Assembly: GCA_046735335.1 (NCBI GenBank)
Contig: JBKPTE010000038.1
Span: 6,707 to 70,706 of the forward strand
Direction of reading: 5' to 3'
DNA length: 64,000 nucleotides
Source: Acidobacteriota bacterium
Lineage (GTDB): Bacteria > Acidobacteriota > Vicinamibacteria > Vicinamibacterales > 2-12-FULL-66-21
A model generated the notes under the pieces. That model ran no database searches. It was not told where the DNA came from and was given only the letters and a program-made list of their open reading frames with translations. A program made the translations under genes and the position numbers. This document shows, piece after piece, positions 8,953-39,507 of this stretch. How positions within the stretch are numbered: the stretch's first letter is position 1; each line of letters begins with the position of its first letter.

Positions 8953-8976
8953 CGGGTCTGAGAGACCCGGCCTACG
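8953..8976. repeat. REP-like hairpin element (CCGGGTCT-GAG-AGACCCGG + CCTAC)
   Basis: Perfect 8-bp stem. The same family occurs at 19650-19676 and three times in 39424-39507. A half copy (CCCGGCCTACAG) at 8929-8940 lies inside the HAD 3' end. Confidence 0.8.
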
Positions 8977-15394: not shown

Positions 15395-15789
15395 TGCCTC
15401 GAAAGCAGAATCGGCAGACGGAGCCCGGGCGCTTTGCCTACGAGGGGCTCGATCGCGTGCTCCACGAGAAGGCGCGGCTGGGCATCATGACGTCGCTCGT
15501 CGCGCGGCCCGAAGGGCTGCTCTTCACGGAGTTGAAGCGGCTGTGCGCGTTGACGGACGGAAATCTCAGCCGCCACATCGACGTCCTGCAGGATGCGGGC
15601 CTCGTGCACGCGTGGCGTGGAAGCGAAGGGGGCCGGCCGCAGACGCTCTATCGGCTCACGACCGAAGGCCGCGCGCGCTTCGTCGCGTATCTGGAAGAAC
15701 TCGAACAAGTGGTCCGCGATGCGCTCCCGAAGGCCGCCAGGCGCCCCGAGCGCATCCCCGACCTGCCCCCCGGCTTCCAGCCCGCGTGA
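15394..15789 (+). CDS. winged-helix transcriptional regulator (ArsR/MarR-like)
   Basis: 131 aa. The ATG overlaps the upstream stop by 1 nt. wHTH segment FTELKRLCALTDGNLSRHIDVLQDAGLV. Confidence 0.75.
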   Translation: MPRKQNRQTEPGRFAYEGLDRVLHEKARLGIMTSLVARPEGLLFTELKRLCALTDGNLSRHIDVLQDAGLVHAWRGSEGGRPQTLYRLTTEGRARFVAYLEELEQVVRDALPKAARRPERIPDLPPGFQPA

Positions 15790-15791
15790 CG

Positions 15792-16005
15792 CCACGGAAC
15801 ACACGGACTCCGGGAGCCACGGAACCCACGGAATACACGGATCCGGGGAGCCACGGAGCACACGGAATACACGATCCGGGGAGCCACGGAACACACGGAA
15901 CACACGGAGCCACGGGAGCCACCGAATACACGGATGAGGGGAGCCACGGAACACACGGAAGACACGGATCACGGGGAGCCACCGAATACACGGAAGACAC
16001 AGAAT
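15792..16005. repeat. unidirectional tandem array of 8-nt words built on CACGGA (about 15 exact cores, about 26 slots)
   Basis: Reads ccACGGAAcaCACGGActcc...; a higher-order unit of about 34 bp (GGGGAGCCACGGAACACACGGAAnACACGGAT) recurs. A period of 8 is incompatible with coding. Confidence 0.9.
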
Positions 16006-16024
16006 CGTCGGCGAGAATGAAGGG

Positions 16025-16231
16025 ATGGTTCTCATCTTCGGCAAAGACACCTGCCCTTACACGCAGGCGGCGCGCGATGATTTCGCGGCGCGCAGCATTC
16101 CGTTCGAATACATCAACGTCAAGAAGGATCCCGAGGAGCTGACGCGCATGCTGCGCTACAGCAACGGCCGCCGCTCGGTGCCGGTGATCGTAGACGGCGA
16201 GTCGGTGAGGATCGGCTTCGGCGGGACCTGA
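16025..16231 (+). CDS. glutaredoxin/NrdH-like small redox protein (possible Sec-x-x-stop extension to 16240)
   Basis: 68 aa. N-terminal CPYT redox motif and Grx fold signature (SVPVIVDGE). The TGA is followed by 2 codons and then TAG. Confidence 0.8.
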   Translation: MVLIFGKDTCPYTQAARDDFAARSIPFEYINVKKDPEELTRMLRYSNGRRSVPVIVDGESVRIGFGGT

Positions 16232-16236
16232 GGCGT

Positions 16237-16650
16237 CTAGGGTTGGCGCCCGGCGGGCGCCTGCAGCCGCCTCCGCACCTCGTCGGGAATGGGCACGGGG
16301 CGTCCCGCGCGGTAGTCGTACATCACCTGCACCGTCTTCGCCGTCGCGACGGTTCTCTGCTGCTCGTCGACGATTTCGTACTCGTAGTGAAAGCTCGAAC
16401 GCCCCATCGCTCCGAGGCGCAGACGAATCTCCAGCGTCTCACCCTGCAGCGCGGCGCGTTTGTAGTCGCACTCCGCGTGCGCGATGATCACGCTCGGGAT
16501 GGCCTCATCTCCACCTGCCCTGCCGCCAAGCGCGCGCCAGTGCGCGAACCGGGTCTGCTCGAGATACGTAAAATACACGGAGTGATTCACGTGCCCCATC
16601 GGATCGCAGTCGCGGAAGCGCACCTCGAGCCGGTGCACGAAGTCGGCCAT
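16237..16650 (-). CDS. acyl-CoA thioesterase (4HBT/YbgC family)
   Basis: 137 aa. N-terminal motif VRFRDCDPMGHVNHSVYFTY. Confidence 0.88.
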   Translation of the reverse strand: MADFVHRLEVRFRDCDPMGHVNHSVYFTYLEQTRFAHWRALGGRAGGDEAIPSVIIAHAECDYKRAALQGETLEIRLRLGAMGRSSFHYEYEIVDEQQRTVATAKTVQVMYDYRAGRPVPIPDEVRRRLQAPAGRQP

Positions 16651-16662
16651 GGCCCCGCATTG

Positions 16663-16668
16663 TACAAT
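16663..16668 (+). promoter_or_regulatory. -10-like TACAAT placed for a leaderless ThyX-like transcript
   Basis: TACAAT ends 7 nt before GTG 16676. No SD precedes either candidate start. Confidence 0.4.
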
Positions 16669-16675
16669 CGGCCCC

Positions 16676-18304
16676 GTGCCGCCATCCGTTTCGCCTCCTG
16701 AAACCTTTACGGACGCCGAACGCCGGGTGCTCGCGCCCTACTTCACGAATCTCGACAGCCACATCTTCGCGCTCCGGAATCTTCCGGAGACGGTCAAGGG
16801 CGCCTTGTTTGCGCGGTACTCACGTTCGGCGAAATCACTTAGGCGGCTCTTCCTCGACGAGTTCGCGGGCAGTGTCACGGAAGACGCGTCGAATGCAGCA
16901 ACGGTCGGCCTCGAGCGCGCCGAGAAGCTGTACTCGCGCGTGTTCAACGAATACGGCGACGATTCCGTCGCGCAGCTCGGCGGCGCGCACATCGCGTGCG
17001 AGTACGTCTCGAACGTGCTGACGAAGGTGCTCGAGTGGGGCCGGTTGATGGCGTACCTCGAGCAGTCGACCCGGTACGTCCCGTACACGGACAGGCTGCA
17101 CGGCCGCTGGCGCTATCACGTCCCGTCGGAGCTGACGGGATCGCTGCGCGATCGCTTCTGCAGAACGATGGACGCGACGTTCGAGACGTACGCGCGCCTG
17201 ATCGATCCGATGCAGCGGTACTTCGCCGCACGATATCCGCGGGGACCCGAGGACTCGGACGCGGTGCACCGGTCCGCGACGCGCGCGAAAGCGCTCGACA
17301 CGCTGCGCGGCATGCTCCCCGCCGCGACACAATCGAACGTCGGGATATTCGGGAGCGGGCAAGGGTTCGAGGCGCTGCTGCTGCGAATGCGCGCACACCC
17401 GCTCGAGGAAGTCCGGGCCTGTGCCGATCAGATGCTGTTCGAGCTTCGACAGGTGATTCCGGCCTTCCTCGCGCGCGTCGATCAGCCCGACCGCGGGGGC
17501 CGATGGACCGCGTATCTCGCGGACGCGCGCGAACGCACGGCCGCAATCGCGCAGCAGCTGACCGCTGACGTCGAGCCCGGCGCGCGCGACGAAGTCACGT
17601 TGACCGATTTCGACCCGGACGGCGAGATCAAGATCGCCGCGGCCGCGCTGTACTCGTCGACATCGCTCCCCGACGATCAGCTCCTCGACCTCGCGCGCAG
17701 CATGACGAGCGATGAACGGGCCGCAGTGCTCCAGGCGTACGTTGGAGATCGATCGAATCGGCGACACAAGCCGGGGCGAGCGTTCGAGCGGACGTCGTAC
17801 CGCTTCGACGTCCTGACCGACTACGGCGCCTTCCGCGATCTGCAGCGGCATCGGCTGCTCACCATCGAATGGCAGCCGCTTTCGACCCGCCGCGGATACG
17901 TCGAACCAGAGGCGATCGAAGACGCCGGCGCGCTCGAGGACTGGTCCCGTGTCATGGATGGCTCGTCGGAGCTGTACGAGGCGATCTCAACGGCAGGTCT
18001 TCGCCACGTCGCGCAGTACGCGGTCTCGATGGCGTTCAGGATTCGCTTCTGCGTGGAGATGAATGCCCGCGAAGCCATGCACATGATCGAGCTGCGAACC
18101 GCGCCGCAGGGACACCCGGCCTATCGGCGCGTGTGCCAGCAGATGCACACGCTCATCGATTCACGCGCCGGCCACCACGGCCTCGCAGCAGCGATGAAGT
18201 TCGCGGATCACTCGGAGGTCGCACTCGAGCGACTGAAAGCCGAACGCGATCTCGAACGCAGGAGGCGGACTGCCAATTCCCAATTGCCCACTCCCAATCC
18301 CTGA
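16676..18304 (+). CDS. ThyX-like FAD-dependent thymidylate synthase family protein, double-length
   Basis: About 540 aa. ThyX-type elements are split over two halves (ALFARYSRS ...; FRDLQRHRLLT; MIELRTAPQGHPAYR). The start is uncertain: ATG 16649 overlaps the divergent thioesterase start, and GTG 16676 fits a leaderless promoter. Confidence 0.7.
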   Translation: MPPSVSPPETFTDAERRVLAPYFTNLDSHIFALRNLPETVKGALFARYSRSAKSLRRLFLDEFAGSVTEDASNAATVGLERAEKLYSRVFNEYGDDSVAQLGGAHIACEYVSNVLTKVLEWGRLMAYLEQSTRYVPYTDRLHGRWRYHVPSELTGSLRDRFCRTMDATFETYARLIDPMQRYFAARYPRGPEDSDAVHRSATRAKALDTLRGMLPAATQSNVGIFGSGQGFEALLLRMRAHPLEEVRACADQMLFELRQVIPAFLARVDQPDRGGRWTAYLADARERTAAIAQQLTADVEPGARDEVTLTDFDPDGEIKIAAAALYSSTSLPDDQLLDLARSMTSDERAAVLQAYVGDRSNRRHKPGRAFERTSYRFDVLTDYGAFRDLQRHRLLTIEWQPLSTRRGYVEPEAIEDAGALEDWSRVMDGSSELYEAISTAGLRHVAQYAVSMAFRIRFCVEMNAREAMHMIELRTAPQGHPAYRRVCQQMHTLIDSRAGHHGLAAAMKFADHSEVALERLKAERDLERRRRTANSQLPTPNP

Positions 18305-19649: not shown

Positions 19650-19676
19650 GGCCGGGTCTCATGACCCGGCCTACAG
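19650..19676. repeat. REP-like hairpin (GGCCGGGTC-TCAT-GACCCGGCC + TACAG), convergent terminator position
   Basis: Perfect 9-bp stem between two convergent stops. Same family as 8953-8976 and 39424-39507. Confidence 0.8.
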
Positions 19677-39423: not shown

Positions 39424-39507
39424 GGCGGGTCTGAGAGACCCGCCCTACAGTAGGCCGGGTCTCTTAGAGCCGGCGCGCATCAATAGGCCGGGTCTCTTAG
39501 ACCCGGC
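39424..39507. repeat. three tandem REP-like hairpin elements (GGC(C/G)GGGTCT..AGA(C/G)CCGGC)
   Basis: Copies at 39424-39450, 39453-39474 and 39486-39507, between convergent genes. Confidence 0.85.

Follow-up and report, generated by a model that had tools for sequence, protein, structure and literature searches.

Family 1 of the UXX-star selenoproteins (NF041114) is made up of glutaredoxin-like proteins of about 70 amino acids that carry a C/U-P-Y-T motif and, third from the C-terminus, a selenocysteine (Sec, U) followed by two residues and the stop. The family, its recoding and its tail pattern have already been catalogued in a 2026 review (PMC13188914), which lists family 1 as the "distant Grx-like protein 1" of the Zhang/Gladyshev selenoproteome surveys (PMC13188914), attributes additional UXX-star families to Haft and Tolstoy 2025 (PMC13188914; PMC2398784), and raises the possibility that the Sec residues of the family may serve metal binding (PMC13188914). 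No experimental characterisation of family 1 was found in the literature searched. This article describes a gene that shares the length, the glutaredoxin-like character, the motif and the tail layout of this family, located on the plus strand of a 64,000-nucleotide stretch of contig JBKPTE010000038.1 (GenBank assembly GCA_046735335.1, positions 6,707 to 70,706 of the forward strand), which is referred to throughout as the window. The host genome is a metagenome-assembled genome (MAG) of the Vicinamibacterales (Acidobacteriota), 5.4 Mb in 160 contigs and estimated to be 100% complete. We hold with high confidence that the gene is a genuine selenoprotein gene and an ordinary member of family 1. 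The locus is thus a further instance of a catalogued family and not a discovery; the family 1 example given in the review has two Sec residues, whereas the window copy is of the one-Sec (C-P-Y-T) type, with Cys at the N-terminal motif. Its parts are the following:

16025–16240, plus strand: complete gene, very probably of a UXX-star family 1 selenoprotein, 71 codons (Met1 to Val71, with Sec69) plus TAG.
16052–16063, plus strand: N-terminal redox motif Cys10-Pro-Tyr-Thr (TGC CCT TAC ACG), read from the sequence.
16229–16231, plus strand: UGA very probably read as selenocysteine (Sec69), on the basis of TGA in 68/68 orthologues, Cys at the aligned position in Uxx_star paralogues and Sec machinery in the genome.
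16232–16237, plus strand: Gly70-Val71 codons, GGC GTC, translated past the Sec codon, with synonymous variation among orthologues and the residues kept.
16238–16240, plus strand: true stop, TAG, read from the sequence.

An earlier note on this DNA, made from the letters of the window, had described a glutaredoxin (Grx)/NrdH-like open reading frame (ORF) with the motif C-P-Y-T that closes at a TGA followed by GGC GTC and TAG; all of these elements were found at the positions it gave, as was every other coordinate in it. The start codon is ATG 16025, and under translation table 11 the ORF comprises 68 amino acids and closes at TGA 16229–16231. Read through, the TGA stands in frame third from the C-terminus, ahead of two sense codons and the stop, and the C-terminal tail becomes G-F-G-G-T-U-G-V. 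Cys10 is the sole cysteine of the protein.

For profile searches, the 71-residue product was used with the TGA entered as Cys. It scored 117.9 bits against NF041114.2 (NCBIfam, UXX-star selenoprotein family 1; cut-off 72), with residues 2–71 falling on model positions 1–70 of 70, and the alignment runs through the TGA up to the last model position. On NF041212, the model of the parent subfamily (Uxx-star family glutaredoxin-like (seleno)protein), it reached 101.8 bits (cut-off 66). The "Uxx-star" family that the earlier note had invoked exists in NCBIfam, and the protein scores well over its curated cut-off. NF041212, families 2 and 3 and the HUGP/GUXX-star fusion all share with the window protein the fold and a Sec or Cys near the C-terminus; however, families 2 and 3 (NF041211 and NF047338) and the fusion (NF045501) yielded 64, 60 and 65 bits, below their cut-offs of 100, 97 and 325. 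The protein does not qualify as a classical dithiol glutaredoxin, with 40.8 bits on the Grx3 model TIGR02181 (cut-off 90) and the motif CPYT, not CPYC, nor as an NrdH-redoxin, with 29.5 bits on TIGR02194 (cut-off 85.75) and no second Cys. Scores on TIGR02196 and on the YruB and mycoredoxin models were far under their cut-offs, and Pfam assigns only the generic Glutaredoxin domain (48.3 bits).

Translation through the UGA was also examined by comparison. Named genomes, when scanned, gave 70 loci, of which nearly all come from Vicinamibacterales/Acidobacteriota MAGs, with a few from Brocadiales and NC10 and one from a "Betaproteobacteria" bin; 68 of these could be read to the end. TGA-x-x-stop is present in all 68, with the stop always exactly 9 nt on, and none ends at ...GGT with an ordinary stop, which is the outcome that the earlier note had named as speaking against its proposal when it called for an orthologue alignment. 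The tail is UGV in 59 of the 68 and UHV, UGI, UVV, URV, USV or UAV in the others. Codons for Gly70 are GGC (27), GGG (24), GGT (6) and GGA (4), those for Val71 are GTC (31), GTG (28), GTA (4) and GTT (3), and the true stop is TGA in 35, TAG in 22 and TAA in 11 orthologues, with conservation lost right past this second stop. Variation in synonymous third positions, conservation of the residues and the loss of conservation beyond the second stop together form the signature of coding sequence, and the two codons following the TGA, proposed earlier as the xx of Sec-x-x-stop, are accordingly conserved as Gly-Val at the protein level. The 35 orthologues whose true stop is TGA read UGA-GGN-GUN-UGA, in which the first UGA would be Sec and the second, 9 nt on, a stop; such members offer a natural illustration of the distance dependence of the selenocysteine insertion sequence (SECIS).

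The N-terminal motif leads to the same conclusion from the other end of the protein. Its first column is invariably Cys or Sec among the 68 orthologues (CPYT 44, UPYT 23, UPHT 1), and in 24 of them TGA replaces the Cys10 codon (e.g., L053:4001-4213, L060, L066), where it cannot be a stop because 60 conserved codons come after it. Two-TGA forms in the first set of relatives belonged mostly to other families of the order, and one-TGA forms to the window's own family. Paralogues containing Cys are also found within the order. They match NF041212 best, their Cys aligning with the Sec position, which makes this a classic Sec/Cys pairing. Their tails run ...GW[QR]G[RH][GS]-C-..., often with more than two residues past the Cys, unlike the window protein, although one of them ends exactly G-C-M-V-stop. 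These paralogues (L124, at G002:C45:27450-27859 on the minus strand, L125, L126 and L123) carry the motifs S-C-P-F-T, R-C-E-H-T or S-C-A-F-T and occur in genomes with and without the Sec form.

The host is equipped to decode UGA as Sec. The earlier note had proposed a search of the whole genome for selA, selB, selC and selD, and all four are present: selA (539 bits), selB (312 bits, at a contig end), selD (354 bits) and a tRNA-Sec(UCA) that scores 59.6 bits on RF01852 and is called tRNA-SeC, anticodon tca, by ARAGORN. SelD (G000:C46:51635-52561, locus L012, minus strand) belongs to the selenoproteins too: an in-frame TGA occupies its active-site position in the stretch M-K-R-L-T-D-Y-A-A-C-A-G-U-A-S-K, followed by LAAGEL. 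Possession of selA, selB and tRNA-Sec together with a Sec-containing SelD means that UGA recoding is in use in this organism. Across 61 related genomes, family matches over the cut-off were obtained in 37, with an in-frame TGA in every match; selA is present in 36 of these 37 carriers, the exception being only 84% complete, and the family is found in none of the four selA-less genomes with at least 94% completeness. The distribution of the gene tracks the Sec trait.

The remaining component of a bacterial selenoprotein gene is the SECIS. In the bacterial model of Heider and Boeck, as in Escherichia coli fdhF, an apical minihelix lies about 11 nt from the UGA, and Zhang and Gladyshev are said to have reported in 2005 a G early in the apical loop. 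The candidate in the window consists of two helices:

16245–16261, plus strand: apical hairpin of the putative bacterial SECIS, GGCGCCC (16245–16251), loop GGC, GGGCGCC (16255–16261), a perfect 7-bp GC stem.
16230–16273, plus strand: lower (outer) helix, GAGGCG 16230–16235 with CGCCTC 16268–16273, enclosing the hairpin and including the last two bases of the UGA.

Both helices, which the earlier note had already picked out at these positions, are part of the minimum free energy structure that RNAfold predicts for the 52 nt from the UGA (-27.4 kcal/mol). The hairpin starts 13 nt past the UGA, in the 3′ untranslated region (UTR) beyond the TAG. An outer helix of this kind is predicted at 48 of the 69 orthologous loci, and is thus frequent but not universal. 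For the apical hairpin, the best simple hairpin in the 33 nt from the real stop was taken for each locus and set against two kinds of control windows. Hairpins of at least 5 bp were present at all 30 loci of a first set and at 99% of the 69 loci of a second, in which the stem reached 6 bp or more in 88% and 7 bp or more in 59%; where other long open frames of these loci stop, the corresponding proportions for at least 5, 6 and 7 bp were 46%, 22% and 8% (Mann-Whitney p = 7e-29 against these control stops). Given the 88% as opposed to 22% with at least 6 bp, the hairpin past the real stop exceeds chance. Its 5′ arm takes 58 distinct sequences among the 69 loci (e.g., GGCGCCC, GCTCCGCA, GCCTTCGC, GAGGCCCC and CCGCCA), and since pairing is kept across these different arms, the stem shows covariation. 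The gap from UGA to stem is 9–13 nt in 62 of 69 loci, with a mode of 11 and a value of 13 in the window, and in 67 of 69 a G occupies one of the first two positions of the loop, with GGUC, GGC, CGUGC and GUC as common loops. An alignment of the 46 nt past the UGA with MAFFT and RNAalifold missed the hairpin, as loop and stem lengths vary and the alignment falls out of register.

The E. coli fdhF-type SECIS is a stem-loop directly 3′ of the UGA whose apical minihelix lies some 11 nt off, with G/U in the loop, and the window element resembles it, 11 nt being the spacer mode among the orthologues; the window element differs in being wholly past the real stop, untranslated and antisense to the end of another gene, and the apical loops are very short (3–5 nt). 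In position, spacing and loop the hairpin matches a bacterial SECIS, and it covaries across genomes; the earlier note had suggested from one sequence that its position was compatible with such an element. A separate family of REP-like (repetitive extragenic palindromic) palindromes of the form GCCGGGTCT-N4-AGACCCGGCCTACAG occurs at 3′ gene ends in the window (8953–8976, 19650–19676 and 39424–39507), with three tandem copies near 39.4 kb. The hairpin was considered as a member of this family and rejected, the copies being unrelated to GGCGCCC-GGC-GGGCGCC.

On the opposite strand, the 3′ end of the selenoprotein gene overlaps that of a convergent gene:

16237–16650, minus strand: hotdog-fold acyl-CoA thioesterase (4HBT_2, 87.4 bits, residues 10–129 of 137; TIGR00051, 66.9 bits).

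The earlier note had cautioned that the hairpin lies in the 3′ coding end of this gene and that the two stops share a CTAG, and it was right on both counts: CTAG 16237–16240 is common to the stops of the two genes, and the opposite strand of the hairpin encodes the final residues of the thioesterase, Q-A-P-A-G-R-Q-P (16237–16263). Coding constraint on these last 8 codons (residues 130–137), which are antisense to the hairpin, is probably weak, because they lie outside the 4HBT_2 match. The thioesterase is a neighbour, separate from the selenoprotein. As for other neighbours, counts were taken from tblastn of named window proteins, ORF clustering having been dropped because spurious low-complexity ORFs dominate in high-GC loci. 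In 30 of 68 loci a thioesterase adjoins the gene, with both orientations represented, and an ABC (ATP-binding cassette) ATPase is directly downstream in 22 of 68. Other genomes, too, have a convergent thioesterase predicted close behind the gene, e.g., at L055, L057 and L066.

Family membership, Sec-decoding genes, a conserved recoded frame, a SECIS-like hairpin and the predicted fold are shown here; the actual insertion of Sec at UGA69 is inferred and, in our judgement, very likely. The GC-rich stem-loop 13 nt past UGA codon 69, just beyond the TAG, would serve as the bacterial SECIS and recruit SelB-GTP-Sec-tRNA(Sec), upon which the UGA would be decoded as selenocysteine, Gly and Val would be added after Sec69, and translation would terminate at the TAG to give a product of 71 residues.

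What such a tail might do can be approached from the predicted structure. AlphaFold2, run on a 43-sequence alignment with Cys in place of Sec, returned a model with a pLDDT (predicted local distance difference test) of 97.2 and a pTM (predicted template modelling score) of 0.85. The predicted topology (beta1 2–6, alpha1 11–22, beta2 27–31, alpha2 36–45, beta3 54–57, beta4 60–63, then tail only) is that of a minimal glutaredoxin fold, beta-alpha-beta-alpha-beta-beta, with no C-terminal helix. The best Foldseek matches in the PDB, at template modelling (TM) scores of about 0.8, are Archaeoglobus fulgidus Grx-1 (3ic4), NrdH (1h75), cGrx1 and the E. coli Grx3-glutathione mixed disulfide (3grx). 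A sequence search of the PDB found Grx domains only, at E values of 1e-7 or weaker, and the family is therefore without a solved structure. Classical glutaredoxins and NrdH (E. coli Grx3 3grx/1fov, NrdH 1h75, A. fulgidus Grx-1 3ic4) share with the window protein, besides this structural similarity, an active-site Cys that starts helix 1, the cis-Pro loop (V-P-V) and a GG motif past strand 4. The window protein, in contrast, has neither the second Cys of the CxxC motif nor C-terminal helices, and its resolving residue would be the Sec in a three-residue tail.

Outside the main sheet, DSSP assigns two-residue strand or bridge segments only at Ser51-Val52, before cis-Pro53, and at Sec69-Gly70. 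As there are no other candidate segments, these two appear to pair with each other, and the tail appears in the model to be folded back beside Cys10. Glutaredoxins hold glutathione's cysteine by its backbone near the active-site Cys, through the residue that precedes the cis-Pro, and for this reason the Thr-Sec-Gly-Val tail may be taken to occupy the glutathione site, placing Sec69 beside Cys10. By this scheme the tail would fold back onto Ser51-Val52, where Cys-Gly is held in Grx-glutathione mixed disulfides, Sec69 would adjoin Cys10, and the pair would cycle between selenol/thiol and an intramolecular selenenylsulfide; such a Cys10-Sec69 selenenylsulfide, which the earlier note had raised, or a diselenide in the U-P-Y-T forms, is plausible given the fold predicted. 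The fuller proposal, in which the Thr-Sec-Gly-Val tail, docked by a short beta-bridge at the residues preceding the cis-Pro, is a built-in selenium mimic of the Cys-Gly of glutathione and the protein a self-contained, glutathione-free Cys10-Sec69 switch, is put forward tentatively, as an idea that may well prove wrong. Mammalian thioredoxin reductase and thioredoxin glutathione reductase (Gly-Cys-Sec-Gly-stop) offer an analogy only: they have a redox Sec one or two residues from the C-terminus on a flexible selenenylsulfide tail, as is proposed for the window protein, and their SECIS, like the putative one of the window gene, is in the 3′ UTR because no coding sequence remains downstream. They differ in belonging to an unrelated family with a eukaryotic SECIS and SBP2, and in having the partner Cys adjacent, whereas the window protein would have its partner in the Grx active site, at a distance of 59 residues.

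Among other explanations, the one that survives best accepts the recoding and concerns function, holding that Cys10 and Sec69 would jointly bind a metal or metalloid (e.g., Hg, As, Cu), mainly as a chelating pair and not as a redox-cycling one. Upstream of the gene in the window are a rhodanese (minus strand), a 210-amino-acid membrane protein, an ArsR/SmtB-like HTH_34 regulator (HTH_34, 71 bits; NF033788, 27 bits, below cut-off) and a 214-bp tandem array, and a winged-helix regulator of this type together with a rhodanese would suit a role in metal handling. This upstream gene set, however, recurs in a minority of only 11–16 of 68 loci, no metal transporter or reductase is consistently adjacent, and the fold and the C/U-P-Y-T motif are typical of thiol-disulfide oxidoreductases. 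We regard chelation as an unlikely main function, although the metal-ligand and redox readings are mutually compatible.

The tandem array takes up the whole interval from the HTH_34 regulator gene to the start of the selenoprotein gene. Tandem Repeats Finder places this one-directional array at window positions 15793–16004, where it is built of CACGGA(A/N)C words of about 8–9 nt with higher-order units of 34 and 60 nt. Beside the gene, orthologous loci in other genomes have similar arrays made of other short words (L023 AACTCCC, L025 CAGGAGAT, L041 AAGCCCC, L049 GCAGCAGG and L043 GGGAGTT), and intergenic short-word arrays look like a general feature of the Vicinamibacterales.

Considerably less probable is that the selenoprotein acts as the dedicated redox partner of a neighbouring double-length ThyX-like flavoprotein, as NrdH does for ribonucleotide reductase. 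The neighbour in question is a ThyX-like ORF of 551 amino acids with two Thy1 domains (16649–18304, plus strand), whose thyX score of 46.5 bits is below the cut-off of 87.9. In 57 of 68 loci the selenoprotein gene has a homologue of this ORF no more than 4 kb away, and the arrangements number at least four. Co-occurrence of the two genes was assessed across the 61 genomes, and there is none: 7 genomes have the selenoprotein only and 18 the ThyX-like gene only. In several genomes (G003, G030) the two genes are on different contigs, and the Brocadiales and NC10 copies have no ThyX-like neighbour; ThyX chemistry is not known to need a thiol partner. Obligate functional coupling was rejected on the adjacency without co-occurrence, and the adjacency is taken to reflect synteny at the level of the order. 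Sec in the ThyX-like homologues themselves was also considered and rejected: five relatives were flagged with one TGA, but these TGAs are real C-terminal stops that the search had read through.

Weakest is the proposal that TGA 16229 is an ordinary stop that ends a 68-residue monothiol Grx-like protein at ...GFGGT, with the hairpin an intrinsic terminator or REP-like element of convergent genes, and this is highly improbable: table 11 does yield a clean 68-residue ORF, GC hairpins are frequent at 3′ gene ends in this genome, 22% of control stops have a hairpin of at least 6 bp and the hairpin is located between convergent genes, but Gly-Val is kept by synonymous changes in 59 of 68 orthologues with the stop always at +9 nt, 24 of 68 also carry TGA as codon 10 of the conserved frame, the curated hidden Markov model aligns through the TGA to its last position, the gene tracks selA across genomes, and the hairpin, with no T-run after it in the window sequence, is unlike the REP-like consensus GCCGGGTCT...AGACCCGGCCTACAG.

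Some observations nevertheless count against the account of a recoded gene with a SECIS and a docked tail. The Cys form was seen only in paralogues and not within family 1 itself. No Rfam family matches 15700–16700 at E values up to 10, although Rfam covers bacterial SECIS poorly; GC hairpins past stops are common in the host genome, the REP-like family being one example, so that the hairpin alone is weak evidence; and the hairpin doubles as the antisense tail of the thioesterase. The contact between tail and Cys10 was taken from the DSSP string and not from coordinates, in a model with Cys for Sec.

Vicinamibacterales are a very abundant and mostly uncultured acidobacterial order of soil. Standard gene callers truncate the gene described here at the TGA, and the 68-residue "glutaredoxin family protein" that they report is missing the residue that is probably catalytic. 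The corrected annotation, a 71-residue selenoprotein, adds one entry to the selenoproteome of soil Vicinamibacterales. Knowledge of the family is otherwise unchanged, and what is contributed here is this annotation, comparative numbers for a 3′-UTR SECIS and a predicted docking of the tail. Future testers may find three features useful, namely a SECIS wholly in the 3′ UTR at a tight spacing of 9–13 nt, a second UGA that is a stop 9 nt on in half of the members, and a tail predicted to dock beside Cys10. If the proposed mechanism is true, the U-P-Y-T relatives (24/68) would be a diselenide switch, the family would represent a minimal natural model of a tail Sec that replaces both the resolving Cys and the cofactor, and, since the UGA 9 nt past the Sec codon is a stop in 35 of 68 members, it would provide a natural test-bed for SECIS spacing.

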